A stretch of DNA of 63,839 nt, filler included, from Basidiobolus ranarum (Eukaryota), in assembly GCA_040143965.1 (NCBI GenBank). It is 29 parts of 29 records of this genome, joined end to end, with 100 filler letters (N's around TTAATTAATTAA, not from the genome) between each part and the next. Parts side by side here need not be neighbours in the genome. Positions count along the whole stretch, not along the records: positions 35,357 to 37,459 come from JASJQH010003773.1; positions 37,560 to 39,661 come from JASJQH010003774.1; 27 more parts are not named here. One strand, 5' to 3'. Within the stretch, counting starts at the first letter, position 1. Each line of letters begins with the position of its first letter. Of this stretch, positions 4,428 to 59,448 are shown piece by piece. The position numbers were made by a program, and so were the translations under genes. Under the pieces are notes generated by a model. That model was not told where the DNA came from. It did not search any database and worked only from the letters and a program-made list of their open reading frames with translations.

Positions 4428-5555
4428 CACATTAATGGCGGAAAAATGTTGCAACTTATGAAATTTTGAGTAGCACTGACACTTGGCATAATAGCTGACT
4501 CTTGTTACCATGGACAATCAGCATATTCACTTGGACTTTGGCAAATTTCTGCAAAGAATTCCACCACAATCTCCCCAATTGACAGTCAACAAATATCCTG
4601 TCATAAATAGATATGTGACTGCTTGAACAGATTACCCCATGGCTAAAACAATAAAATTCTGTATCTTGATCTATTTAGCCACCAAGTCTTTCTTGCAGCT
4701 TGCCTAGGAATACTGTCACACTAGCTCATACACAAAATTGTCTGAAACATGGAGGTATTAACTCTGTTTCCATCAATTGACTTTTGTTACTGTTTTTACA
4801 CCCAAACAATGCAAAAACACATGAGCATATGGAAAAGAGACCTATATTCAAAGTTTAATATAGTCTGCAGTCTTCTTAGCCCATTGCATGATATCCTTCA
4901 CCAATTTTTCTGATACATTGTTCATCAGATTAGCATTTGCAATACTGACAATTTTGCACAGAGCATCATCTCACACCAGGTGTGCTCCATTGGGAACTCC
5001 TAGAATGTATTGTAAGGGCCTATGATCCCTAAGCTTTGGGTAAGAGGCAGCACAGAGTGAATTGAATACTGGCATAGATTCAGTCTATTTTCTCTAAACC
5101 TGAAATCAAGTTTTTTAAAATCCAATTAGAAAACTCTCTCACAGTTGCTGTGTCTGTCTGAGATCTGCCAATGTGACTCAATATAGTAAGAATATATTAG
5201 CAAAATCCACAAACAACTCCCAATATTGCCAGTACTGATAAGGGAGAAATCTTTTCAAGATTCCACTTGATTAAACACAAAGTGAATACTTCCAGTCCTT
5301 GCATTTAACACCTTGCCCATATGAGTAAATAATGATAGGAGTCCTGGTACAATATGATGGTATCTTGATGTTTTCAGCATTTACAATCAATTCAAACTTT
5401 GATCACATCTTGTATGGCTTATTCAGAATGAATATTTGACTATGCAGCTGAGAGTAGAGAATTGGAATGTTATTAAATAGTACAGGCATAGTGACCAATG
5501 GGGAGCTCTGGCTCCAGCTGATCCCCTTTAGCAATATAATCATAGTCTTACCTTC
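4428..5555 (-). mobile_element. Heavily decayed CMC/EnSpm (Tnp2-like) transposase fragment
   Basis: Homologous by eye to the better copies at 11065-13175 and 33153-34629 (GISWSQS.P, EFPMEHT segments). Many stops. Confidence 0.8.
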
Positions 5556-6640
5556 TAGTGGGATAGCATTGCAACCCACTAGCAGATTGACTTATTTCCA
5601 TTTCTAGCTCATAAAATTACTATCTCACAGCTTCTACTTGATTATCTATATTTGACTAATGCATATTTTCAGGCCTATCATATCACACTATTAGTACAAT
5701 AAACTATCATTTGAAATTTATCTATATTAACCCCCTTTAGCCATATTAGTTTCTGGAAATTTCTATAATCTTGAGGAATGCACCACTTGATTGTAGGAAT
5801 ATTTACTGATTATGTGAATAATCACCAATATAACTTGATTTTGCCGGAATATTCCATTAGTTTCTGAATTATTCTACAACCTTCCAGAACAAACCATTGA
5901 TTACTAATCTTATGATTTGTGATGATATCATATTTCCTAGATCCTCACCAATATAATTTCTAGGAACTTTTTGGAAATTCTCATCAGTAATTGTTTCTAC
6001 CTTCAGATATGTATTAATAGGAGCCATATTTTTTCAATAAAATCATCCTGGTTTTCAAATAACAATTACTACTGGTGATCACCCCTTATCTTAATCACCT
6101 CTTACAAGACCTTGGAAGAGGAAGCTCACAAGAGACTGCCAGAGACAATTAGAGGCTACTGTGTAACTGGAAAGGACTTGGCTGGAAAGGAAGTACTGAC
6201 TGGTAGGTGTAATATTTTTGATACTTTACATATTTTTTCCTAGGTTTTTCTGTATAGGCAAGGAACTTTTCATATCCTTAGATAAGTCGCATCTAGTGCA
6301 ACCTTGTTCAAGACCCTGCTGGCTGAGTTTTCAGTTGTTTTTGATTGGACACACTCTTTTTATCTGATCATTCTCAAAGGATGTTGAAGCCATTATATTC
6401 TTTTATCAGGCACCAGCTTGTTGTTCAACAGAAAGCTGGACATTACATTGAGGTTTATCAGTCCTTAAACATTTCTATAGGCTTGCTCCCAGTTCACAAA
6501 GACCCTAAAGCCCTAAAAAAAGTTAAAGGGATTTGATTGGNNNNNNNNNNNNNNNNNNNNNNNNNNNNNNNNNNNNNNNNNNNNTTAATTAATTAANNNN
6601 NNNNNNNNNNNNNNNNNNNNNNNNNNNNNNNNNNNNNNNN

Positions 6641-7136
6641 CACCATTTGTAAGATAAGAGAAGACTATAGCCAAATTGGCATATAATGGGGAAGAATGCA
6701 GAAGGCCAGGATGTGTCACAGCTAACAAGAGGCCCAGAGGAGGGATACTCACCAAGAGGCAAAAGCTTTATGATGAAAATTTTTCCCATGTTAAAGCATG
6801 AGTGGAACATAGCTTTAGTTTCCTAAAGAGATACAGAATTGTAGCACAAAAGTATAGAGGAAAATCATTTTGTGGGCTTCAATCAAAGTCAGGTAAAGTG
6901 GTTAACATCTTGATCAATTCTCAATACATTCATACTCAAATATATCCATTGGGAGCTCTAGACTTAAGACACTATGAATAAAGCTTTCATCATCTCTTGA
7001 ATGTGCAATAATGTTTAGATGTACTTTTCCTCAATATACCACATAAGTAAAGCTACTGTTTCTAATATGGTAAATAAAATTGTGCCAGATAGTGCCCAAT
7101 CATACAAATTTGTGCTGACACACTTTTCAACTGGCC
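6641..7136 (+). mobile_element. 3' end of a PIF/Harbinger-like element (DDE_Tnp_4 C-terminus plus terminus ...CTGGCC)
   Basis: Translates VEHSFSFLKRYRIVAQKYRG. A reverse-complement homolog lies at 61257-61644. The end is followed by TGA. Confidence 0.65.
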
Positions 7137-8752
7137 TGATCTGGCTTAATTGATTGATATTACCAATGGGTCTTCAGATTGAAGTTTGCAGATGTCTTCA
7201 TTGATTGTGCTTGAACTAGACAGAGAAAGGGCAGTTGCACTAATTTGAAGTTGGTAGTACTTCAGTAAGGAAGTATTTTGGTGGCCAAAGGCCTCATCCC
7301 CTTCTTTAGGCTGATATTCTGCTCTATGTGATAAGGCATCAGGTTTTCCATGCTGGCTACCTGGTTGGTATGTAATCACAAAATCAAAACTGGCATGAAA
7401 TAATGACCATCTTGCTTGATGATGGTTGAGAAATTTGGTTGTACTAAAATACTGAAGATTCTTGTGATCACAATAAACTGTGATTTTGAGATTTGCTTCA
7501 TCCAAGTATTGTCACCATTGCTCAAACGCAGCAATAATTGTTAATAGTTCCTTGTTATATACATCATAGTTAATTTTTGTGACAGAGAGTTTTCTTGAGT
7601 AAAAGGCAACAGGGTGCAGTAATTTGTCATCATCAAATTGTGATAGTACTGCTCCTAGAGCAAAGTTGGATGCATCAGTTTGAACAATAAATGGCTTGTC
7701 TAGCTTGGGATGTGCCAGGATTGCTGCTGAGGTAAAAGAGCTCTTTAAAGTTACAAATGCTTTTTGGCAAGATTGGTTCCAGTTGAGTAGGAGTTCTTTG
7801 TTTGTATGGTTTGTTAATGGAGCAGATATTTTGGAGTAGTTCTTGACAAATCAACTGTAAAAGCTTGCAAATCCAAGGAAAGATTGGACATCCTTAACAT
7901 TCTAGGGAATATCTCAACCAAGAACAGATTCAACCTTCTTAGTGTCCATGGAGATGCCTGATGGGCAGATGTTATATGCAAGGAAGTCAACTTGAGCTTG
8001 ATCAAATTCACATTTCTGAAGTTTAGCATAGAGCCCAGAGGTTTTCAACTTTTTTAGGACTTGGGAAACAAGAATATTAAGTTCTTCTTGAGAGCTTGAG
8101 AAAACCAAGATAATGTCAAGGAAGATTAACACAAATTGGTCAAGATACTCTCTGAAGATATCATTCATCAGGTGTTGAAAGACTGCAGAGGCATTAGTAA
8201 GTCCACATGGCATGACATTGTATTCAAAGTGTTCATAGCAAGTTCAAAAGGCAGTTTTACATTGGTCTCCTGGTTTGATTCTTACAAGATTGCTAGCACC
8301 TCTTAGATCAATCTTTGTAAACACCTTGGCTGAAGCAAGCTGATCCAAGAGTGAGTTATTAATGACAAGGGGTACCAATTTTTGACTGTAATGCTATTTA
8401 GGCATTGAAAATCAACACAGAGATGGAGGGAACCATCCTTTATTAATAAATAAGATTGGAGAGTCTGCTGGGGATTTAGAATGTTGGATAAATCCTTTCT
8501 CCACATTTTCTGCAATGTACTCTTTCCAAATGTTGAGTTCCAGCTGCAAAGGCCCATATGTAGGCCCAAATGGTGGTTATTTTCCTGCTTGTATATCTCT
8601 AGGGCAATCATATGGGTGGTGAGCTGGGAGTATATCAGATCTCTTCTTGTCAAAGACATCAGCAAAGGCTTGGTATTTGGGTGGGAGCTTATGAACCATA
8701 GGTTTTGTAGGCTTCAGCTCTTCAGCAATACTGTCAACAGATATTGGCTTTA
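7137..8752 (-). mobile_element. Ty3/Gypsy pol pseudogene (reverse transcriptase, RNase H)
   Basis: LHLCVDFQCLN, MPCGLTNASAVFQHLMNDIF, FLDIILVFS (degenerate YLDD), DASNFALGAVL, VYCDHKNLQYF. Frameshifted. Confidence 0.93.
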
Positions 8753-22118: not shown

Positions 22119-23717
22119 AGATTTCAATATGTTCATTGATATCAATTCACCAAATACCCAGTCTAACATCAAACTTGGTATTAGATGTAGGCCTATGATT
22201 ATATTGCTGAAGGGGATTAATTGGAGCCAGAGCTTCCCTTTAGGCACTATGCACTTACCATTCTACAACATTTTGATACTGCTTATTCAGCCATATAGTG
22301 GCAAATTCAATATGTATGAGCCATTCAAGTTAGGATCAAAGTTTGAATCATTGAGAAAATGATTGAAAACATCAAGATACCATCATATTCTACCAGGACA
22401 CTCATCTAGACATTTATTTAAATGCAAAGACTGGAAGTATTGGATTTGTATATATTCAAGTGCAATTTTGAATTGCTTTCTGCCTGATTAGTATTGCCAA
22501 CATGGGGAGTTGTTTGTTAATATTGTTGATATATTGTTATGGCATCAACTCACATTGGGAGATATCAGGCAGATACAGCAATTGTGCCAAGACTTTGTAA
22601 TTGGATATGAAAAACTATATTTTAGGTTTAAAGAAGATAGACTGAATATATGCCAGTATTCAATACATTCCCTGCTGCATCTTTCACAATGCTTTGAGAT
22701 TATAGGCCCTTGCTATACATTCTGGGAGTTCCCAATGGAGCACACCTGTGGTGAAATGATGCTCCATGTGAAATTGTCAGTATTACCATATGCTTATCCA
22801 ATTAACAATGTATCAGCAAAAGTAGTGATGGATGAAATACAATGGGTTAAGGGGACTCCAGAGTATATCAACCTGCCAACAAAGGACTCTATCAATGTGT
22901 TCACAGGTTTACGCATTGTTTGAGCACAATAACAGCAACAAAGCCCAATCTATGGACACAGAGTAAGTACCTCTATAATTGGATGAATTTGCTTGTGTGA
23001 TAATCCGACTATATTTTTAGGAAAGCTGCAAGAGAGACTTCTTGGTGAGATAGATCAAGATATGCAGTATTATTGTCTTAGCCATGTGGCAATATATTCA
23101 AGCAATGACATGTCTACTTGTGGCAGGACATATGTTGACTGCAAGATGGGGATATATTTGCTGAATTCTTTACAGAAATTTGCCAAAATCCAGGAGCTTT
23201 TTCTCATTGTGAATGGTAACAAGAGTCAGCTATTTGCCAAGTGTAAGTGCTATTCAAAATTTCAGATGTTTAGCAATTTTCCATCATTAGTTTGCTAGTA
23301 AAGCATAATGAAGTTGTTGAGTTACATCTAATCAGTCAAGTATCTATATATGTAGAGACTAAACACAACAAGATTCTTGTATTTTCAAGTCTCATTATGG
23401 CTGGAATACCAAGCCTAAAATATCTAAATAAAGGCATGCATGTTAAATCAAATTTCTACAGCAGTAAACTCAGTAATTTGCCATTCAAAAATTATATTTC
23501 TTTGAAAATTGCCAGTTAGTGAACGATGCATGCCAAATTTCAGGATCATTGTTTCAACATGTATGAATAACATCAAAATACCATTAAGAAACCACCATTA
23601 CACCATCAAAATCCCTGGCAGAGTGCAAGCCACCAGTGCTGTGACAGTTCTCCAATGGCTTTGCTACTTGGGAGGGTGGATCCCATCTGGATCAAATAAA
23701 TTTTGTAATTGATAGGG
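22119..23717 (+). mobile_element. CMC/EnSpm copy, 3' half with degenerate right end (...GATAGGG)
   Basis: IHSLLHL, GPCYTFWEFPME. Homology to the other copies ends at AGGG, followed by Copia RT. Confidence 0.85.
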
Positions 23718-24227
23718 CAGGTAGGTGTCTCTCCTAGTGTACCAGGTCCTGGTTGATGGTTTAAGTCCATAAAGTGCTTTTTCTAGCCTACACACATCCT
23801 CAGGGTGCTCAGGATCCATAAAACCATCTGGTTGATCCATGAATATATCCTCTTCCAAGTCCCCATTCAAAAAAGCATTTTTGACATCCATTTGATGGAC
23901 TTTTAAGCCGTGTTTTGATGCTACTGATAGTTCTGTTCTGATAGAATTAAACTTTGCTACAGGAGTAAAAGTTTTATTGTAGTCTACTCCTTCCTTTTGA
24001 GAATATCTTTTAGCCACAAGTCTGGCTTTATATCTTCCTACAGATCCATCAGCTTGCTGGTTAACTTTAAACACCCATTTGCAACAAGTCAAATTTTGAG
24101 TGTCAGGTGACTTAAACAAAGTCCAAGTTTGGTTATCTATGAGTGACTGATATTCCTCTGCCATTGCAGCACTCCAAAACTTTGTGTTGGGACTCTCCAT
24201 AGCCTCCTGTACTGATTTGGGTTCATC
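23718..24227 (-). mobile_element. Ty1/Copia reverse transcriptase (RVT_2) fragment, interrupted by the CMC element
   Basis: CKWVFKV, RYKARLVAK, QMDVKNAFLNGDLEEDIFM, LEKALYGLK. Confidence 0.95.
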
Positions 24228-35471: not shown

Positions 35472-37801
35472 TTCATTGATTTTCTCAGCGGTGCTAGTGA
35501 GTGCCGTCTGCTCTCTAGGCATTATCTTCCGGTCAGAAAATCGTCGACAAAAGGCTACTCAGTATAACGTAGAGACAATTCTACCTAAGCCTAAAGTGGT
35601 GCAACAGTAATAGCTGGCCGGGTGTCCTCTTTACTTTTGATGGGACATATTGATTAATTTTTAAATACATGTTTGTTAATAATCCAAAACCTGAATTAAC
35701 TGAATGCAGATCCTCAAATATGTTTGCAGAACTAGTCGTTTGTTTCACAGTGATTATTAGAAATTGAGATGAGTGAGAGATTTTTTAATTTGATGATTCA
35801 TTTGAAATAAACCCCAATACTTTATGTACAATCGCCAGTGAAATACTCCTGATATTTCCGGCTGGTGTTATATTTCGCAAAATTTGGTAATTGGTAGGTA
35901 ATGAATCTGACACTTTGCAGATCAGATGAGCTGTAATTGTGAATCTCAATTACTCTGATTCTATAAATGGGATTGCAACATTGTGCGTAGATTGGCTATC
36001 CAATATGGAGTATAGGTCGTTCTTCTGATAACTGAACCTATCACTTGCTTGCAGTTATCATGCAATTATCTCACTCAAGCTGATGAAACATTGTCTGTCA
36101 TAAGATCTAGTAGAGTTGAGACAGCTCCAACCATTAGTAGCATAAGTTACGTGTTTGGATCTAAAATTCACTTAATGATTCAAACCGTCGTTTCTCAAGC
36201 AGCAAACAACATGTTTTCTGATTCAAGAATATAGAAAATATCATTTTTTATCTAATTGGTTCATTCTAAGCCCATATGCGCAGACAATGTTTCCATATAG
36301 TTATTGTGTTTTATACCACGAGATTCCAATATTAATTAAAATGACATGGAGTATTGCTATGTCTTAATCAGCTTAGTTCCGTTAAAGCTCTTAATTTGGC
36401 ATGCATGAGTAAAAATGTACTCCCTAGCTCCAAGCTGCATTAGCCATTAAATATTTCGCTAGTGAAAAGAGCTTTATGGTTACCTAAGTTCTGCCGTACC
36501 ATTACAACGTATTGGAGCTCAAACCCAGATAAATCTAGGGTTGCTCAGATTAGATATTGAAATGAAAGAATACCGGTCCAGTGCTTGAGATATCGAAGTA
36601 CAAGGAAAGGAAGCAGAGATACTCTTGACATTTCTAACACTTACTAGTTAGGAAGTCAAAAATAGTAGTTTTATCATATGAAAAGTAAAGTATTCATTGA
36701 CAGCTCATATGGGAGGATCGTCGGTACTCTTGAAGTACACTTTTAGAAATAATCTGCTGATGTGGTGATTCATACAAACGAGATAATTCTTGATCTAGTT
36801 TCTCATGGACACTTTGCGTATGCTCTTGAGATTCACTGGACATATACACAAGGTCTCTGCCCTAATTAAATACCAATTCACGTATAACTATTGGTTGTTA
36901 CCATTGCACCTGGATTCCTTCCGTTAGTCTTTTCAGTAGCATATAACCGAGGGAGATTTACCCAAGCCCGAGCTATTCCTGTAAATCCACCTGTAGTGTT
37001 GAAATGAGAAGGATTGAAGTCGATGGAACTGGATATTTGAGGTAGAAACTGTAGGCTCGGACTCCTGTGGGACAGATCACCACTGTCATGGATATAGTTG
37101 GTTATTTTGTCTATAGGTTTATGATTGCTTACAACTTGTTTACTTGTCCGTGGGGATAGTATACACTATGTTTTAGATTACAAATTTCTCTCAGTATGGA
37201 CACCTATCCATAAATATTCTCAGTACTGACGCTGGTGTGATTTGGACGATATTATTAGATGAATTTTATGCTAATCCTACCTGATGTGGCGAAAGAGTAT
37301 CTGAAAGGCAATTGTGAGAATAGTTTCTAGAGGAGCTCATTGTTAGTACCATATATAGTGTAATGACTTGTCTGACATGATAATCCTAATCTTGAATAAC
37401 ATGGTAACTTCTCCCAAATAGAGTAGAATGTAGATGAATTGAAAAGTGCTCTGGGGGAANNNNNNNNNNNNNNNNNNNNNNNNNNNNNNNNNNNNNNNNN
37501 NNNTTAATTAATTAANNNNNNNNNNNNNNNNNNNNNNNNNNNNNNNNNNNNNNNNNNNNTATCCAAACTTCCGTATCTACAATCCTAATCTTTTATTCCC
37601 CAAACTTCCGTATCTCCAATTCTTATCTTGTGATATCTCCCACTTATCCTACCTCTGCTCCTACTCTTTAACCACCCCTAACCTTTTAAAAAACCACATA
37701 CATGAATATATATATATCCACAAAAATTATCTACTAACTTTTCTCCCACAATATATATTATCTTCATGCAACAATAGTCTTCCCTCCCGCATATCTTCTC
37801 C

Positions 37802-38431
37802 CTAATCCCTATTCGCCAACGGAAAAGATTCTATTATTCTATCAACAAACAGCTGACTAAGTTGAATCCTAAGTCTCCCTTGGGTCTTGTCTTTGTAAGT
37901 TAACGTAAATATTACTGCCGGCCTAGTCATAGCGTTACTAATCTCACGCACATCCACCTGCTTCTGATTTGTATAAGCCGCGCTATAAATCGTACCATCG
38001 TTTGATTGTATTAATCTTGTATACAATAAAGACTTATCGTCCAAATCCACAATCGGTACCTTTATGTTCTCCACGCTTATCCCCGACATCTCTGACACTT
38101 TAGTCAAAATGCTCTCCAACAGTTTATAAAACTCTACGTGATACGGATTGTCCCCCTTTAACGTAAACATTGCCGTAGTGTGGTTCGTCTCAACCCTCTT
38201 CTCCCCTTGACCAAATTTCTCCTTCTCTACACTCTTACAAAAAATTAGTCCCTCCTGATTCCTTAATGTTGTAATGCACAAGTCTTTAGGATCAGAATGC
38301 CCATCATATGTATACATCACAGATCTACGCATATATGGCCCACCTGTCGCAACCGGCTCTGACAAAAACACCTTAGAACTATCAAACGATTCTGGGGTAA
38401 CCCAATTAATAGATTGTATTTTTGGTAACAT
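37802..38431 (-). CDS. 209-aa intronless protein, putative viral-type ssDNA-binding protein (DUF2738-like)
   Basis: Intact ORF. The pattern FDSSKVFLSEP...L.ITT...LYTRLI...LRIQLSQLFV recalls nucleocytovirus SSB-like proteins (from memory, not searched). Divergent from an RNAP gene. Confidence 0.5.
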   Translation of the reverse strand: MLPKIQSINWVTPESFDSSKVFLSEPVATGGPYMRRSVMYTYDGHSDPKDLCITTLRNQEGLIFCKSVEKEKFGQGEKRVETNHTTAMFTLKGDNPYHVEFYKLLESILTKVSEMSGISVENIKVPIVDLDDKSLLYTRLIQSNDGTIYSAAYTNQKQVDVREISNAMTRPAVIFTLTYKDKTQGRLRIQLSQLFVDRIIESFPLANRD

Positions 38432-38573
38432 GATAGTTTGTCTTTATACTACTAAACCAAGATTAGTCCCGGTTTGAATTTATTTGTTTCAACTCATTAC
38501 ATTTCAACACATTACTTTGAATTTAATCCCATCCCCCATCCCTCAAGCTACCAATAATATACATCAAGAAACT

Positions 38574-39661
38574 ATGCATCCCAATTTGTTTGAGGTCCAA
38601 ACTAATCTTTTAGAAAAATTCTTTGACAAATATGGTTTTGATGCCAACATTTGTAATTCCCACAATTACGTCTTACAAAAATTTTTATCCAAACTTCAAG
38701 ACAAATTTGGTCAGGACATAAATTTCGTTCCTCCAAAACTAAATTACGTTGATGCAATAATTAAACGTAAAACTTATGAAGGACATTACGAACACGGTAA
38801 TGGCAAAGTAGTCTGCAAAATCCCCCTCTTAAATGACAAAGGCTATTACATCATCAATGGCATCAAACATGTCCCCCTGATTCAAGAATTACAAAATAAT
38901 TTTATTCCCTATGTCTCCCAAGATGATAATGTTGTCTATTGCAAAACTAGGTTCAAGGGAGCCCTCTTACCATTAAGAGTCTGCGTCAAAAACTCTGTCG
39001 ATCTTTATCTAGATGTCTCATCAACTCACAAAGATCTTAATGGAATGAAATATATGTCTGTATATTGGATCCTTAATAATTTTGGTTACAACTTTGGTAA
39101 AATATACAAAATCTTTGCTTTTCTTATTGCCAATAGATATGACTTTAATGCCTTCCTCACCATCTTCCTATCCTCTGTTACAGAATCCAAAAATACCATT
39201 ACCCCCAACAATTTACAAATCTTGGAGTCTAAACATTTCCCGTCACAAGATAAAAGAAATGTTGCATACACACTTGGCTTATTATCATACATGGCCCTTA
39301 TGACTTCCATGGATATTGTTCAGCCTATGGACCAAGACGATTATGGAAACAAAACTGGAAAGGCTTTGAATATTCTTTTAGATCAGATTTTAAATCGCGC
39401 CATTAAGCTATCAGATACAGAAAATTGTCTGCAAACTTGTTTGGATGACAAACTTCTTACCATGCTTAAAGAGGGTCAACAAATTATACACGGAAAAATA
39501 GATTCCAAAATGGTAAACTTAGTCTTGCAAAAATCTGTCACAGATGAAGTCTCTATGGTTAGAAAAATTATCATACCTTGTGACAAGAACACTTCAAATA
39601 TCCATATGCAAGCTATTCATCCCAGCCAGTTGGGATACGGGGGTTTGTGTGAAACCCCAGA
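38574..39661 (+). CDS. Divergent, compact RNA polymerase second-largest subunit (RPB2/beta-like), N-terminal part, virus- or plasmid-like
   Basis: KIP...GYYIINGIKHVPLIQE (cf. GYFIINGSEKVLIAQE), DQDDYGNK (cf. DRDHFGKK), SMVRK...QAIHPSQLGY..LCETP (cf. SHLRR...RQLHNTHWG..CPAETP). No introns. Confidence 0.85.
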
Positions 39662-39761
39662 NNNNNNNNNNNNNNNNNNNNNNNNNNNNNNNNNNNNNNN
39701 NNNNNTTAATTAATTAANNNNNNNNNNNNNNNNNNNNNNNNNNNNNNNNNNNNNNNNNNNN

Positions 39762-41862: not shown

Positions 41863-43199
41863 NNNNNNNNNNNNNNNNNNNNNNNNNNNNNNNNNNNNNN
41901 NNNNNNTTAATTAATTAANNNNNNNNNNNNNNNNNNNNNNNNNNNNNNNNNNNNNNNNNNNNGGATATCAAAAATCCCAACATCGCCCATGCGCAAACGC
42001 CTCACCAGGTAAATACATGGATATAAATATCTGCAATTCCATAGAGGATAACCCATTTTGTTGGATGAAGAACAATTCACTCATGACAACACCGGTTTCG
42101 CTTAGCCTGCAGCAATGTCCAGAGACGGTAGGTTACTTCAATGTAAATACTGCTTTAATATTCTGTGGCAATATTCCATATTAATGCTCAGTGCATAGAT
42201 GATTCAGAATCAGACACAATATTAAGGACGTGAAGTGAGTTTTTGCAGGAGACAGGGTTTGTGAAGTCAACTGACGATACGACATCTGGACGTCAGCATG
42301 ATGCCTAATTAATATGTAGTTGTAGTTCGAGGCTATTATCATTTGCAGTCGTTGTAAGTTCTCTGTTCCTTGCATCATTTCCACCACCAAAGCTTGTCAC
42401 CTGTTGATGTGGGTCCTATACAATGTCGGATTCCCAAGCCCTTTTTTCATGTTGATTTTCTTCTTTTTAGCAATTCTACCCTTAGAAAAGTAGACACGAT
42501 TCACCTCTTTCTAATAGTGCATACTGCTCACTTTTTTGTATCTCAAGTTTCTATATATAAATTGCTTGATGTAAGCTGTTTGCCTGATCAACTGATATCG
42601 ACACTGGTGTTTATTAATATTTGGGTACGTACACCTAACTGATTCTTGTGTTTCCTGCTCGATATAAGCACCACTCCTGGAGAGAGAGTAAAATAGCATT
42701 TCAAGACAAGCAAGGCATTATTCAATGCTTGTCACGGTAGAAAACCATAATATCAATTTATGCTACACATTGGCCTCAGGAGGTTTGAAAGATGATTGGT
42801 TTTACTAAGCCGCAGAGCAATTGTTTGTTATGAGCAATTGACAGTCTCCCATCCCTTGGTTTTACATGCAGAACCCAAAAATCGGATCTGCATATTGGCA
42901 TTGATATATTGGACTTATTAAGCCATATACGCCTTTGCTCAGATCACAATTCAGTTAATAATAGATTCTATTTCGTTTATTTATTGAGTGCTTATCCTTT
43001 GTAAATGCATCTACATACTCTTTGAACTTGCCAATGGAGAATAATAATTAGTATAGAAAGCATAAATAATTGTATGCATGAATAGTGAAGGGGGGAATAT
43101 CAAGTGTCTTGGATAAAGAATGAGGGGCATGTTTCTTTCAGAGGCTTAACTATAGTGACTCAGAAGAAAAGGGGATCGGTTACGATCAAGGGTCAGGCC

Positions 43200-44063
43200 T
43201 CAAATCTGAACAGGCTTATTACCCACAGCACATTTTCTTCGGCGCATATCGTTCTTGGCGTTGTGGGTGAAGATTTTCTCCAGATATTGATCAACATCTG
43301 GTACTTGATGATAACGTAAAGACTCAAAGCACCAGTCAATATGTCCTTTGATCCAGTTCTGGTAAATGAAGATGTGACGTCCAAGCGCATCACATACTTC
43401 CTTGGTGTAATTTTCTTGAGCCCAGGCTTGAAGGGTATCCTGTGTCTTGACGAAATTTTGGATCTCCTCATCCAACATATTGCTAGCTTTATCAGCAGCA
43501 TCTTGGAAGGTGCATTGTAATGAGTTTTGTAATACAATAACCAGGTTATTGATGTCCCCATGCGCATATTCCTTCTCAAAAGAAAATAGATCGTTGGTCC
43601 AGCAGACGATATTGATGATTTCTAAACGTAACTTCTGAAAATCAGAAGATTCATAGATCTCCTTAGGTAATGGTGCTTGTTCGGTGAATTCGATCACTTC
43701 CAAACTCAACAACATCCCACCCGCATCTTGACGATTGCGAATATAGGTTTCAACATCCGGAAACCCTTTAGCTTTACGCATCTCACATTCCTTGAAGTAA
43801 GAGCTAAGGTAACGTGCGAAGTAATGGGATGTACGTTCTTGCAAATCTGGATCAGTAAAGCGACAGTAATCCCGCCATAATTCCGCCAAGGAAAGACAAA
43901 TTGGGGAAGTAAGAACAGCTTGAATTTGGTCTGCATACATGGCTAATGGATCTTCTCGTAGTGAGAAATTGACTGATTTGGTACTCTTACAACTTACAAT
44001 GCTAACCAATTTCGCGACAATTTTCCAAATTGGCGACCGCTTTCGCATACTTTTCATCATCAT
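43200..44063 (-). CDS. Class I terpene cyclase, microbial type (5'-truncated)
   Basis: Effector Arg (RQDAGG), NSE/DTE motif NDLFSFEKE, C-terminal WCFESLRY (WxxxxxRY). DDxxD motif not in the visible frame. Confidence 0.92.
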   Translation of the reverse strand: MMMKSMRKRSPIWKIVAKLVSIVSCKSTKSVNFSLREDPLAMYADQIQAVLTSPICLSLAELWRDYCRFTDPDLQERTSHYFARYLSSYFKECEMRKAKGFPDVETYIRNRQDAGGMLLSLEVIEFTEQAPLPKEIYESSDFQKLRLEIINIVCWTNDLFSFEKEYAHGDINNLVIVLQNSLQCTFQDAADKASNMLDEEIQNFVKTQDTLQAWAQENYTKEVCDALGRHIFIYQNWIKGHIDWCFESLRYHQVPDVDQYLEKIFTHNAKNDMRRRKCAVGNKPVQI

Positions 44064-57352: not shown

Positions 57353-58282
57353 TATCAGGCAGAAATCTTTTCAAAATTCCACTTGAATATATACAAATTC
57401 AATACTTCCAGTCTTTGCATTTGAATAAACGCCTAGATGAGTGGATATTGATGGGAGTCCTGGCAAAATATGATGGTATCTTGACATTTTCAAGCATTTT
57501 CTCAATTGATTCAAACTGTGATTGTATCTCAAATGGCTCATTCATATTGAGTTTTCCACTATATAGCTGAGTAAGTAGTATCAGACTGTTGTTGAATAGC
57601 AAGTGCATAGTGCCTAATTGGAAGCTCTGACTCCAGCTGATCCCCTTTAGCAATATAGTCTTAGGCTTATGGCTAATACAAAGCTTAATGTTAGACTGAC
57701 TATTTGGTGAATTGATATCAGTGATCATGTTGAAATATATCTGGGCTCTTGATGGTAAAATCATGGAGTTTAGTGTTGAATTTGGATAGTAGTAATGCAT
57801 ATGCCTGATAGAGTAAACTCCATTCCTTTGACAAAATCTACAGCAAGATAGTGCTTTGCACCCACAAAAACCTCCAAGTTTACTGATGGCAGGAGTATCA
57901 CCAACACATGCAATGATATTAGCTTTAATAAAATATTCACCCATCTGAACCCCATTACATAACCATTTAAATTCCTCAATCAAAGGCTCATAGTAGCAAT
58001 CCATAAGCACTGGTGATTTAGGTCCAGATATGATGAATAGTATCAAAATATTATGACTGTAATACCATTCAGAAGGAGGAAGATTTAAGTTAATTAAAAT
58101 TATTGGCCAGCAAGCCTTTCCAATGGTATATTTGTTTAACAAGAAACCATCCAGAACCAAAGAAAGTGCATGATCATAAGTGTTCTCAAAGAAACCTTGA
58201 CTTTTCAGATTCTGGTAGTAATATCTATCAAGTATATCAGTAGTACCATCAGCTTTATGGGGGGTACTTTGTTATTGGATCA
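57353..58282 (-). mobile_element. CMC/EnSpm transposase core (longest open piece, 253 aa)
   Basis: LDGF, CWPIILINLNLPP, IISGPKSP, VGDTPAISKLGGFCG...CCRFC, GTMHLLFNN. Confidence 0.9.
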
Positions 58283-58999
58283 CCCTAACAGAAATTTGAG
58301 GATTGTTATTGTAGCAAACCATCACTATTTTAATCCATTTGGGGTTGACTGTTTACTTACCATCATAAAATCATCAAGTTAGATTTGATTTTAATCAAAT
58401 TTTTCAGTTTTGGGAGTTAAATTTCAAGATCTTGCAAAATAGTTGCGCATGATTGGCTACAATCATAGAGAACTGTGGATCAACACCTGTGCAAAAAACA
58501 TAACTAAAATCTTATACAATTACCACTTGAACACTAATTTGTTGCCTTCAAAATCCCTAGTGTCTTTGATATATTCCCCTGAATATTTTTATATAGTTCT
58601 TCATATCCAAGGTTTAGCTCATACCCAACACAAGTTTGTATCAATATCTCCATCATAGCCCACCATTGTATTAACGTTGGTGAATCAACATTCTTCCAGC
58701 TATCTGGTGGATACCCTATGATATCATGCCACTCTGTATTAAGTTCTTCCCAGATATCTGTATGGTCAACACCAGACTGAATGTCAAGTTGAATGTTCTT
58801 CTTCTGAAGCCACTTTCTGCATACTTGCACTGCCCTTTTCCCTTCATACTTTTGAAAAAACTCCTCAAGCACTTTGACTATTTTTGTATGTCCTTGTAGT
58901 GTGACACTACTCAGGGTACTCTGTGGTGTTTGTGTGGCTTTTTGCTTGCCTTTACCTTTGGGGCTAATTTCAACACTTTGAAAAGTACCAGTTGAGGTT
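58283..58999. mobile_element. Putative CMC left end (CCCTAACAGAAAT...) with second ORF (58534-58872, minus strand)
   Basis: Sharp junction inside the transposase. The ORF WEELNTEW...GYPPDSW...QWWA recurs near 50450 and 59300. Confidence 0.7.
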
Positions 59000-59448
59000 C
59001 CCTAACAGAAATTTGAGGATTGTTATTGTAGGAAAACCATCACAATTTTAATCCATTTGGGGTTGACTGTTTACTTACCATCATAAAATGGTCAAGTTAG
59101 ATTTGATTTTAATCAATTTTTTCAGTTTCACAAGTGAAATTTCAAGATCTTGCAAAAAAGTTGCATATGATTGGCTACAATCTCAGAGAACTATGAATTA
59201 ACACATGTGCAAAAAACATAACTCTAATTTTACACAATTACCACTTGAATGCTAATTTGTCACCTTCAAAATCCCTAGTCTCTTTGATATAATCTCCTGA
59301 ATATTTTTATAGAGTTCTTCATACCCAAGGTTTAGCTCATACCCAACACAAGTTTGATTCAATATCTCCATCAAAGCCCACCACTGTGTTAATGTTGCTG
59401 AATCAACATTCTTCCAGCTATCTGGTGGATACCCTACAATATAGTGCC
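59000..59448. mobile_element. Second putative CMC left end nested in the first
   Basis: CCCTAACAGAAATTTGAGGATTGTTATTGTAG, identical to the start at 58283. Confidence 0.72.

Follow-up and report, generated by a model that had tools for sequence, protein, structure and literature searches.

A 2,102-bp contig from the genome assembly of the fungus Basidiobolus ranarum carries an RNA polymerase gene next to a gene for a putative viral ssDNA-binding protein (SSB), and raises the question of whether this pair comes from the fungus, a plasmid, a contaminant or a virus. The original prediction saw a virus-like cassette, part of a possibly undescribed element of an early-diverging fungus related to nucleocytoviruses or to pGKL2-type plasmids. 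The contig is one of 29, each about 2.1 kb long, that are concatenated via N44-TTAATTAATTAA-N44 linkers into the window, i.e., the whole stretch of 63,839 nucleotides that was analysed.

Two divergent ORFs on a single contig

The contig spans positions 37560-39661 as a single entire assembly contig (GC 36.2%, CpG o/e 0.65) and is the sole physical unit of the finding. Artificial linkers divide it from the preceding contig (37460-37559) and from the following, unrelated one (39662-39761). As it is one member of a concatenation, it has no physical linkage to anything beyond these coordinates. The contig after the second linker bears a fragment of the ATP synthase alpha/beta family. By blastn, none of the window's 28 other contigs proved similar (best E 0.39), and tblastn of 11 proteins gave no match in the window beyond 37560-39661. 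GC and GC3 lie inside the range of the host contigs and do not separate the contig from them. Its left end, downstream of the SSB-like gene, holds a 30-nt direct repeat on the plus strand, with two copies 37 nt apart that are 90% alike (37563-37629).

Two intronless ORFs had been predicted to diverge about 140 bp apart, and the two ATGs are indeed separated by 142 bp. The minus-strand ORF, P0002, covers 37802-38431 and is a complete frame of 209 aa plus stop, whereas the plus-strand ORF, P0001, runs from 38574 to 39661 and comprises the first 362 codons of a longer gene. The spacer between them (38432-38573) has 32% GC. The sequence TTTGAATTTA has only two copies in the window, both within the spacer (38473-38482 and 38516-38525), and this pair is a candidate shared promoter element. 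Scans with consensus promoters and terminators remained at chance level, and the VLE promoter motif ATNTGA has 0 matches on both strands of the 142-bp spacer, with 0.70 expected by chance.

A compact RPB2-type polymerase subunit

P0001 starts at the ATG at 38574 and stays open through 39661 with no stop and no intron needed; it stops at 39661 because the contig ends there, not the gene. The cut falls directly after the CETP motif and leaves approximately the front third of the subunit, i.e., the protrusion, the lobe and the start of the fork. The RPB2/beta motifs are present in the predicted order, with KIPLLNDKGYYIINGIKHVPLIQE at residues 82-105, DQDDYGNK at 253-260 and SMVRKIIIPCDKNTSNIHMQAIHPSQLGYGGLCETP at 327-362, and the frame ends in HPSQLGYGGLCETP, the point where Pfam Rpb2_3 begins in relatives. 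A Foldseek check had been proposed for this ORF, and with the AF2 model of the 362 aa (pLDDT 86), 50 of 50 among the PDB matches listed were second-largest RNA polymerase subunits, with E from 4e-10. Superposition by VIA gave Z 13.6-15.1 over residues 1-360, which align with residues 25-531 of yeast Rpb2 (Z 14.2), 22-518 of mammalian Rpb2 (Z 15.0), 20-489 of Pol III (Z 14.9) and 2-460 of archaeal Rpo2 (Z 14.6). The yeast alignment bears out the claim that the ETP motif is reached after about 360 aa as against about 520 in yeast.

Curated profiles do not recognise this front part by itself. A Pfam scan of P0001 returned no Rpb2 family at E<=1 and only chance-level rows, and the best match in a PDB sequence search was plastid RpoB at E 0.96. 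The family membership of P0001 therefore rests on its full-length relatives and on its fold. The ESM Atlas returned viral RNAP-beta-like clusters from phages and nucleocytoviruses, which we did not use for taxonomy. P0001 represents the N-terminal protrusion/lobe region of an RNA polymerase subunit of the RPB2 type, and a very divergent and compact one.

Searched by phmmer against 1.84 billion representatives, P0001 had 36 matches at E<=1e-3, 21 of them at <=1e-10, the best being the 963-aa protein P0005 (E 9.4e-71). Among ten of these matches, Pfam found Rpb2_6 and Rpb2_3 in all ten and Rpb2_7 in eight; in P0005, Rpb2_6 covers residues 536-869 and Rpb2_7 residues 871-954. The hybrid-binding domain (Rpb2_6) and the C-terminal clamp/zinc ribbon (Rpb2_7) would lie beyond the point at which P0001 is cut. 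Four near-invariant cysteines mark the C-terminus of the full-length relatives. The resulting compact clade holds 83 proteins of 811-1,032 aa with more than 380 bits to P0005, and P0005 scores 420-746 bits against compact-clade proteins. By comparison, P0005 reaches 305 bits with archaeal chains, 262-292 with Pol II, 272-274 with Pol III, 227-240 with Pol I, 189 with ASFV and at most 313 with the giant-virus RPB2 ORFs of IMG/VR (about 1,140-1,340 aa), which fall outside the clade.

A phylogeny with cellular, NCLDV and pGKL2 ORF6 sequences had also been proposed. Our FastTree tree of 82 rows, run without pGKL2 ORF6 rows, places 39 of 40 compact rows on one branch with support 100, apart from the archaeal, eukaryotic and 22 IMG/VR rows. 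Within the branch, P0001 groups with P0041 of B. ranarum (support 100), then with P0005 (99) and then with P0007 (100). Since the tree has no labelled pox-, asfar-, irido- or pithovirus rows (and no fungal Pol I/III rows), the position of the compact clade within Nucleocytoviricota is taken from published work.

Close named relatives come from B. ranarum, where P0041 (284 aa) is 78.5% and P0008 (120 aa) 80% identical to P0001; these close relatives are annotated in a genome assembly, one of them on a 21.3-kb contig. P0015 is a member of the clade from Linnemannia elongata. Other relatives lie on contigs from metagenomes, up to 137 kb in size, and the IMG/VR contig L089 combines a compact RPB2 (891 aa) with a 610-aa N-terminal piece of RPB1 and a SNF2-type helicase. 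Searches of metagenome contigs gave 8 loci with P0070 (32-42% identity) and no match with P0047, while no match was found for P0002, P0047 and P0014 in viral contigs or for P0001 in a plasmid collection by tblastn. P0001 thus belongs to a distinct compact clade whose named members are from B. ranarum and Linnemannia elongata.

A putative viral ssDNA-binding protein

P0002 has no internal stop and needs no intron. It had been predicted to be a putative viral SSB, with DUF2738 named among the families to check, and structural comparison points the same way. In the ESM Atlas, P0002 has a feature score of 0.96 to nucleocytovirus clusters including 'P31K', and these clusters carry DUF2738/DUF5871 and, by features, Pox_I3. 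The Atlas model of P0002 (pTM 0.78) superposes on nine nucleocytovirus clusters with TM 0.67-0.76 by query, and on the 'P31K protein' cluster with TM 0.74 over 192 aligned residues; in three of the nine, the aligned parts reach the bar for DUF2738 or DUF5871. The Foldseek check proposed for this ORF gave a divided answer. Against BFVD, 47 of the 50 matches listed for a low-confidence model (pLDDT 56.6) are named nucleocytovirus proteins and three are unnamed, but the same model has no PDB row at E<=0.001. A PDB sequence search with P0002 was also empty, so these searches gave no link to a solved SSB fold. For the four SSB-like proteins P0002, P0003, P0004 and P0157, Pfam had only chance-level rows and no match to the P31K, DUF2738 or DUF5871 models at E<=5.

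P0002 therefore resembles the nucleocytovirus P31K/DUF2738/DUF5871 family by predicted structure only, and ssDNA binding is a putative function. The ranavirus P31K homologue is described as binding ssDNA in EMSA and as part of the replisome (PMC8734342). Compared with this ranavirus vSSB (P31K; ADRV-85L / RGV-27R / FV3 25R; DUF2738), on whose cluster its model superposes, P0002 is shorter (209 aa versus at least 261 aa) and has no significant Pfam match.

The pairing of the two genes appears to recur in three compact-clade lineages, as judged by equal recorded contig sizes: a contig of 19,807 bp is recorded for both the SSB-like P0004 and the RPB2 P0007, and one of 3,815 bp for both the SSB-like P0157 and the RPB2 P0005. 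Profiles for an SSB-like ORF matched none of 2,618 ORFs in 80 IMG/VR loci below E 0.35, and nothing in L081-L089 below E 1.5. The pair is thus unseen outside the subclade of P0001 itself.

Uneven CpG content of the two genes

The two adjacent genes differ in their CpG content, with a CpG o/e of 0.44 in the RPB2 part and 1.00 in the SSB-like gene. All host gene contigs (0.31-0.77) lie below the SSB-like gene, and the transposon-bearing contigs, 15 of the 29 in the window, have values of only 0.01-0.19. Polarised from protein alignments only, 28 replacements in P0001 are derived, and 14 of these are compatible with CpG>CpA/TpG. The G>A changes are preceded by C in 13 of 14 cases, where the background is 0.186 (p 4e-9). 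The CpG-type replacements include R254Q, E338K, E124K, E98K and R346Q, the last at a position that is invariant in 83 of 83 family members, and eight of the 14 fall in columns where 65-100% of the family has the ancestral residue. Such mutations at family-invariant residues suggest that this RPB2 copy has probably ceased to encode a working polymerase subunit. An apparent strand bias among the CpG-type changes (13 G>A versus 1 C>T) was discarded as an effect of codon position; TpG is as elevated in the RPB2 piece (o/e 1.38) as CpA (o/e 1.13).

At family columns that are at least 85% conserved, P0001 retains 36 of 52 residues and P0041 98 of 116. For P0002, 71 of 75 conserved columns are retained and none of ten derived changes is of CpG type. 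Differences between P0002 and P0003 are mostly conservative (64% BLOSUM-positive), as are those between P0001 and P0041 (56%), and neither P0001 nor P0002 has a frameshift or stop. Two odd residues in P0001, V356G and C357G, lie within a G run at most 20 nt from the contig end and may be assembly errors. The B. ranarum relatives P0008 and P0013 are clearly decayed; between them they show differences of which 22% are BLOSUM-positive, a gap of 23 residues and truncation. The CpG contrast between the two neighbours is the new detail of this locus, and the unmutated, conservatively diverging SSB-like gene fits a recent or still active element.

Origin of the contig

Our preferred explanation, to which we assign a probability of about 0.7, is that the contig is a fragment of a small NCLDV-like element from a lineage with a miniaturised RNA polymerase, likely endogenous in the fungal nucleus. 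In the source virus, both genes would be read outward from the common 142-bp spacer. Judging from relatives, the SSB-like gene would supply the ssDNA-binding protein for replication, and the RPB2 gene the second-largest catalytic subunit of a multisubunit RNA polymerase that the virus encodes itself. The viral subunit would be about 150 residues shorter than cellular Rpb2 ahead of the fork motif, with a total length of about 900-970 aa. We consider it most likely that the present copy is an endogenous viral element within the nuclear genome, and its RPB2 part has been struck by the CpG-to-TpG/CpA process that stripped the host transposons, with the adjacent SSB-like gene still intact and unmutated. 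No host-virus junction or host flank occurs on the 2,102-bp contig, so we infer integration rather than see it. Instead of a self-contained cassette, the piece is a contig fragment whose RPB2 part shows signs of decay.

An unlikely alternative is a virus of the same lineage, either free or persisting as an episome, whose DNA was sequenced along with that of the fungus and whose two genes are both in use. The two open ORFs, the pristine state of the SSB-like gene, the missing host flank and the occurrence of relatives on large metagenomic contigs and in a viral collection (L089) would all suit such a virus. However, the 14 CpG-type replacements in RPB2 follow the pattern of the host's transposon contigs, the contig shares its GC and GC3 with host contigs, and the B. 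ranarum relatives are annotated in a genome assembly, with P0008 and P0013 decayed. Contamination, be it by an unrelated organism or by a virus of that organism, is very improbable: despite the short contig and its lack of linkage to host genes, proteins 78-80% identical are annotated in another Basidiobolus genome assembly, the RPB2 CpG signature equals that of repeats in the present genome, and the composition is within the host range. A fast-evolving host paralogue of Rpa2/Rpb2/Rpc2 could account for intronless ORFs with host-like GC, but we regard it as extremely improbable. P0005 reaches nearly the same score with each of the three enzymes of yeast (262, 272 and 240 bits), below its archaeal score and far from the values inside the compact clade. 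The clade also stands apart in the tree from the one eukaryotic RPB2 row and the Puccinia row, and the adjoining gene belongs to a virus-only family. This agrees with the earlier view that the plus-strand ORF is too divergent for host Pol I/II/III.

The pGKL2-type cytoplasmic linear plasmid, a yeast-type virus-like element, had been named as an option beside the nucleocytoviruses, but its architecture does not fit; we consider it highly improbable, marginally more so than contamination. With its ORF5 (SSB) and ORF6/ORF7 (RNA polymerase), pGKL2 likewise represents a fungal, capsid-less element with an SSB gene and a shortened RNA polymerase gene of nucleocytovirus ancestry. Such elements are reported from Zoopagomycota and Mucoromycota, where they carry YKP5 and YKP6 (PMC13348850), and the 963-966 aa of the P0001 relatives come near the 974 aa of pGKL2 ORF6. 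We compared the described architectures using full-length relatives rather than the cut copy in the window. K2ORF6p is a fusion whose beta regions fall between residues 1 and 693 and whose beta' regions fall between 754 and 974 (PMC6211774), whereas the relatives P0005 and P0007 are whole beta-type subunits with no Rpb1 domain. In addition, the spacer lacks ATNTGA, which in such elements lies 20-40 nt ahead of each start codon, the contig GC is 36%, and the SSB-like protein matches nucleocytovirus families.

Relation to known elements

An NCLDV-like fragment of this sort would match in kind the Physcomitrella NCLDV-like regions and the relics termed 'fundsalphavirus' that occur in Basidiobolus, Mortierella and further fungi. 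Such NCLDV-like relics of non-zoosporic fungi were published in 2020; RPB2 is one of the genes that they share, and the 'fundsalphavirus' hosts include Basidiobolus meristosporus, B. heterosporus and Mortierella (Linnemannia) elongata (Gong, Zhang and Han; PMC7017919). P0001 shares its clade with RPB2 proteins of B. ranarum and L. elongata. On the other hand, an SSB is not listed among the six shared genes in that report, nor is a CpG contrast between two genes among the features described there (PMC7017919). The likeness is one of kind, and we do not equate this locus with any published one.

The NCLDV-like regions of Physcomitrella patens are described as containing SSB and RPB2 among 20 gene families, together with a split RPB1 (RP1n/RP1c), RPB5, a SNF2 helicase, D5 and DNAP, and as lacking genes for a capsid and for a packaging ATPase (Maumus et al. 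2014, PMC4083422). L089 resembles them in having the N-piece of a split RPB1 and a SNF2 helicase beside its compact RPB2. They differ in that the host is a moss, and the homology of their SSB and RPB2 to the window genes is inferred from descriptions. The Mycodnaviridae are also fungus-associated nucleocytoviruses, but these are reported to have capsid genes and zoosporic hosts and to be allied to Algavirales and Imitervirales; the same source reports no capsid gene in 40 non-zoosporic genomes (PMC13533422).

Compact clade membership and the SSB-like fold thus uphold a nucleocytovirus-like element of an early-diverging fungus. The term 'possibly undescribed' does not hold, given the moss set of 2014 (PMC4083422) and the fungal elements, Basidiobolus included, of 2020 (PMC7017919). 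The contig is a real viral relic of a kind that is already known. We think it rather unlikely, though less so than the plasmid or contaminant explanations, that the SSB-like gene is more than a fossil, i.e., that the fungus keeps or has co-opted it or that the element is active, perhaps in a virion-less, semi-autonomous lineage. A lineage with a miniaturised polymerase might persist in this way in terrestrial fungi, as a semi-autonomous element without virions.

The contig adds one more relic of a small NCLDV-like lineage where fungal relics are known, and leaves that picture unchanged. The apparently recurring divergent SSB-RPB2 pair offers a compact marker for finding such elements. A CpG-mutated polymerase gene beside a pristine neighbour, in turn, gives a handle on repeat-directed CpG mutation of incoming viral DNA, and on whether the fungus keeps any viral gene.

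Two divergent ORFs on one contig

The window consists of 29 contigs of 2,095-2,114 bp placed in descending order by size and is not a continuous chromosome. All 29 contigs are separated by linkers of the form N44-TTAATTAATTAA-N44, of the six-frame stop type, and as these are artificial joins, any feature that seems to cross a linker is an artefact. The span 37560-39661 is exactly one contig of 2,102 bp. A complete 209-codon ORF lies on its minus strand (37802-38431; protein P0002), and a 142-bp spacer separates this from a plus-strand ORF (protein P0001) that starts with an ATG at 38574 and remains open for 362 codons through the contig end at 39661. The same start methionines are used in the homologues P0003 and P0006. 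The RPB2 motifs listed in the original prediction were found within the plus-strand ORF in the order claimed, and the original observation is confirmed. Nothing resembling it was found elsewhere in the window by protein-level and DNA-level searches.

Within the spacer, the sequence TTTGAATTTA occurs at 38473-38482 and 38516-38525, 43 nt apart. These are the only two copies in the whole window, across which 0.93 occurrences are expected, and the pair is a candidate promoter element, noticed after the fact. The extreme left of the viral contig (37563-37629) holds two 30-nt direct repeats that are 90% alike and 37 nt apart. Among the other contigs, the gene-like 41963-44063 carries an ORF piece of 287 aa that matches Terpene_syn_C_2 strongly (E 2.5e-38). 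The contig at 39762-41862 starts with a fragment of the ATP synthase alpha/beta family, followed by an open frame of 670 aa in which Cys-containing modules recur and which has a long tail of Ser/Thr-rich repeats; the opposite strand is likewise open, which is a low-complexity effect.

The plus-strand ORF as the start of a compact RPB2

Homologues and predicted fold identify the plus-strand ORF as the first third of an RPB2 of compact type. P0001 matched no relevant Pfam family, and its sole match in a sequence search of the PDB was plastid RpoB (E 0.96), at the IPLxNxxGxFIxNG motif. When 1.84 billion representatives were searched exhaustively with phmmer, 36 matched at E≤1e-3, 21 of them at E≤1e-10, and the top match was the 963-aa protein P0005 (E 9.4e-71), with residues 9-362 of P0001 aligned to 8-359. 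When ten of the matches were run against Pfam, all had Rpb2_6 and Rpb2_3, and eight had Rpb2_7. The domain positions in P0005 (Rpb2_3 at 315-374, Rpb2_6 at 536-869 and Rpb2_7 at 871-954) indicate a whole beta-type subunit ending with the clamp, and four C-terminal cysteines are near-invariant across the family alignment.

The structural model of all 362 residues of P0001, built from an 82-sequence alignment, is confident (pLDDT 86, pTM 0.72), and every one of the 50 PDB matches listed by Foldseek is the second-largest subunit of an RNA polymerase (E from 4.2e-10). With VIA-align, residues 1-360 of the model were placed on residues 22-518 of mammalian Rpb2 (Z 15.0, rmsd 5.2, 321 aligned), 25-531 of yeast Rpb2 (Z 14.2), 20-489 of the Pol III subunit (Z 14.9) and 2-460 of archaeal Rpo2 (Z 14.6). 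These ranges uphold the earlier estimate that the ETP motif is reached after 360 residues against about 520, and the protrusion/lobe region is some 100-150 residues shorter than in the cellular enzymes.

The compact proteins form a distinct clade that has fungal members. Among the best 120 of 6,830 matches to P0005, proteins of about 750-1,030 aa made up a block that scored 366-746 bits and whose precomputed Pfam sets had no lobe and external domains; beneath it, again within the best 120, came ordinary RPB2 of 1,070-1,215 aa and archaeal RpoB at no more than 335 bits. In the whole set of proteins compared, those of at least 800 aa with more than 380 bits to P0005 numbered 83 and spanned 811-1,032 aa. 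In 80 giant-virus loci from IMG/VR, the RPB2 ORFs were about 1,140-1,340 aa long and reached at most 313 bits, while solved structures scored 305 (archaeal), 262-292 (Pol II), 272-274 (Pol III), 227-240 (Pol I) and 189 bits (ASFV).

A FastTree phylogeny of 82 rows comprised 40 compact proteins (every third member plus 11 chosen, with the window RPB2 and B. ranarum included), 22 from IMG/VR, four named archaeal, two eukaryotic and 14 unlabelled. A single branch (support 100) holds 39 of the 40 compact rows, the exception being the borderline protein P0033, and within it the window RPB2 pairs with B. ranarum P0041 (100), then with P0005 (99) and then with P0007 (100). This tree is to be read with the caveats that long branches are readily joined, that the root is arbitrary, and that labelled rows for pox-, asfar-, irido- and pithoviruses are missing from it, as are rows for fungal Pol I and Pol III. 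Only three clade members are named, two from B. ranarum (21.3-kb and 1.8-kb contigs) and one from Linnemannia elongata (36.7-kb contig); the two from B. ranarum share 78.5% (284 aa) and 80% (120 aa) identity with the window RPB2. One member comes from a viral collection, L089 (1-22652), part of a 51.7-kb IMG/VR contig, which encodes an RPB2 of 891 aa and, two genes away on the opposite strand, an N-terminal RPB1 piece of 610 aa that covers Rpb1 domain 1 through the beginning of domain 5. It also encodes a SNF2/ResIII helicase, a DUF5757 protein and a GNAT acetyltransferase, and several of its ORFs (170-837 aa) have no match in Pfam.

The minus-strand ORF as a putative viral ssDNA-binding protein

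P0002 had no match by Pfam or by PDB sequence search, and its only relatives in 5.8 billion clusters are P0003 (84% identical), P0004 (50%) and P0157 (50%), which align with it end to end with 71 invariant columns. The exact P0002 sequence is in the ESM Atlas, where its model has a pTM of 0.78. By Atlas features the 30 nearest clusters are all viral, mostly nucleocytovirus (score ≤0.96), and by Atlas structure there are nine matching nucleocytovirus clusters, with a TM by query of 0.67-0.76. The aligned parts of three of these nine qualify as DUF2738 or DUF5871, and one is named 'P31K protein'. An AlphaFold model from three sequences was poor (pLDDT 56.6); it found nothing in the PDB, and the 50 matches listed for it in BFVD comprised 47 named nucleocytovirus proteins and three without a name; 24 matches had E≤0.001. 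The ranavirus homologue of P31K, ADRV-85L, is reported to be plentiful on nascent DNA and to shift single-stranded phiX174 DNA in EMSA (PMC8734342). As the modelled fold resembles the P31K family, whose ranavirus member binds ssDNA, it is a reasonable inference that P0002 is a putative viral ssDNA-binding protein (SSB).

The pairing of SSB and RPB2 appears to recur among the relatives. P0004 and the RPB2 relative P0007 are each recorded on a 19,807-bp contig, and P0157 and P0005 each on a 3,815-bp contig; since the recorded sizes are equal, each pair probably shares one contig. Profile searches of L089 and the other IMG/VR loci detected no SSB-like ORF.

Linear plasmid, relic or live element

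Recent work reports killer-plasmid-like elements carrying YKP5 and YKP6 from Zoopagomycota and Mucoromycota (PMC13348850), which makes a linear plasmid a rival worth testing. The yeast pGKL2 polymerase K2ORF6p is described as a fusion in which residues 1-693 hold the beta regions and residues 754-974 the beta' regions (PMC6211774). The full-length relatives of the window RPB2 have no beta' part, and K2ORF6p's published description sets them apart from it. Plasmids of this type carry the promoter motif ATNTGA 20-40 nt before each start; the 142-bp spacer contains none, with 0.70 matches expected by chance. The absence of the beta' fusion in the relatives and the ATNTGA-free spacer make a yeast-type linear plasmid very unlikely.

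The GC content of the viral contig (36.2%) lies within the range of the other contigs (33.6-44.6%) and GC3 is similar, so that neither is informative on whether the element is a relic or live. CpG observed/expected (o/e) is bimodal over the window: 15 of 29 contigs lie at 0.01-0.19 with TpG and CpA raised (e.g., 4428-6540, 6641-8752, 22119-24227 and 57353-59448), and five of these 15 carry transposon domains by Pfam (RVT_2, RT_RNaseH, Transposase_21 twice, once below cut-off, and DDE_Tnp_4). The remaining 14 lie at 0.31-0.77, including the four ordinary-gene contigs that were scanned, at 0.35-0.74. A strong process of CpG mutation or methylation, directed at repeats, appears to operate in the host. 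Overall the viral contig is gene-like (0.65), but its SSB-like gene has a CpG o/e of 1.00 (23 CpG) against 0.44 in the RPB2 piece (14 versus 32 expected), where TpG o/e is 1.38.

Amino-acid differences between P0001 and P0041 were polarised, from proteins only, with P0005, P0007 and the family majority. Of 28 differences derived in P0001, 14 are reachable by a single CpG>CpA or CpG>TpG transition in the present context, and 13 of 14 G>A changes are preceded by C (background 0.186, binomial p 4e-9). Eight of the 14 CpG-type replacements fall at columns where 65-100% of the family has the ancestral residue (E98K, R107Q, E124K, D213N, R254Q, S318L, E338K and R346Q), and the R346 column is invariant in all 83 family members. 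Family columns conserved to at least 85% are kept at 36/52 in P0001, 98/116 in P0041, and 88/131 and 35/58 in the evidently decayed B. ranarum copies P0008 and P0013. P0002 keeps 71 of the 75 columns where its three relatives agree, all four departures being conservative, and none of its ten derived changes is CpG-type; 64% of its 33 differences from P0003 are BLOSUM-positive, versus 22% between P0041 and the decayed P0008.

The RPB2 paralogues from B. ranarum and other sources are in differing states. P0041 lies near the consensus of the family. P0008 shares 91% identity with P0041, but its changes are mostly radical and its C-terminus is scrambled, and P0013 has a gap of 23 residues. R346Q and E338K are common to P0008, P0013 and the window copy even though P0008 is otherwise nearer P0041, a pattern suggesting that CpG sites have been hit repeatedly among the RPB2 copies.

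The likely course of events is that both genes were mostly under selection, as virus genes, when they diverged from their relatives, that the viral copy later came to lie in this fungus's genome, and that the CpG mutation which the host directs at repeats has started to erode the RPB2 part but has spared the SSB part. A recent or active element instead of an eroding relic would also fit, and the pristine SSB-like gene speaks for it. Erosion of a relic is further weakened as an explanation because the contig shows no junction with host DNA, because both ORFs are free of stops and frameshifts, and because the polarisation rests on proteins only. In addition, V356G and C357G are odd residues in a G-run within 20 nt of the contig end and may be sequence errors, which weakens it as well. 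The boldest reading still standing, in which the SSB gene is being retained or the element is still active, seems unlikely.

Relation to published viral relics

Gong et al. (2020) screened 1,006 fungal genomes and reported 87 NCLDV-like sequences in 15 of them (PMC7017919). Their 'fundsalphavirus' group, a Pithovirus ally by DNA polymerase, is described from hosts including Basidiobolus meristosporus, B. heterosporus and Mortierella elongata, with D5, SNF2 helicase, SAM methyltransferase, RPB2, RPB5 and a split RPB1 as shared genes (PMC7017919). A gene set of the same kind was described from moss by Maumus et al. (2014), with 17 copies of an SSB family, 13 of RPB2 and a split RPB1, and this set is presented there as one without capsid and packaging ATPase genes (PMC4083422). 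The Mycodnaviridae paper reports a capsid gene in 0 of 40 non-zoosporic fungal genomes (PMC13533422). Our literature search found the term 'fundsalphavirus' in Gong et al. alone, which was also the sole paper found linking Basidiobolus to NCLDV terms, and no paper joining 'Basidiobolus' and 'Nucleocytoviricota'.

The original prediction was thus right about the kind of element, a nucleocytovirus-like polymerase with an SSB, but not about its novelty, as such relics have been published. The contig piece is a further example of this published kind of viral relic, and its added value is modest: a recurring SSB-RPB2 pair and an uneven CpG erosion.
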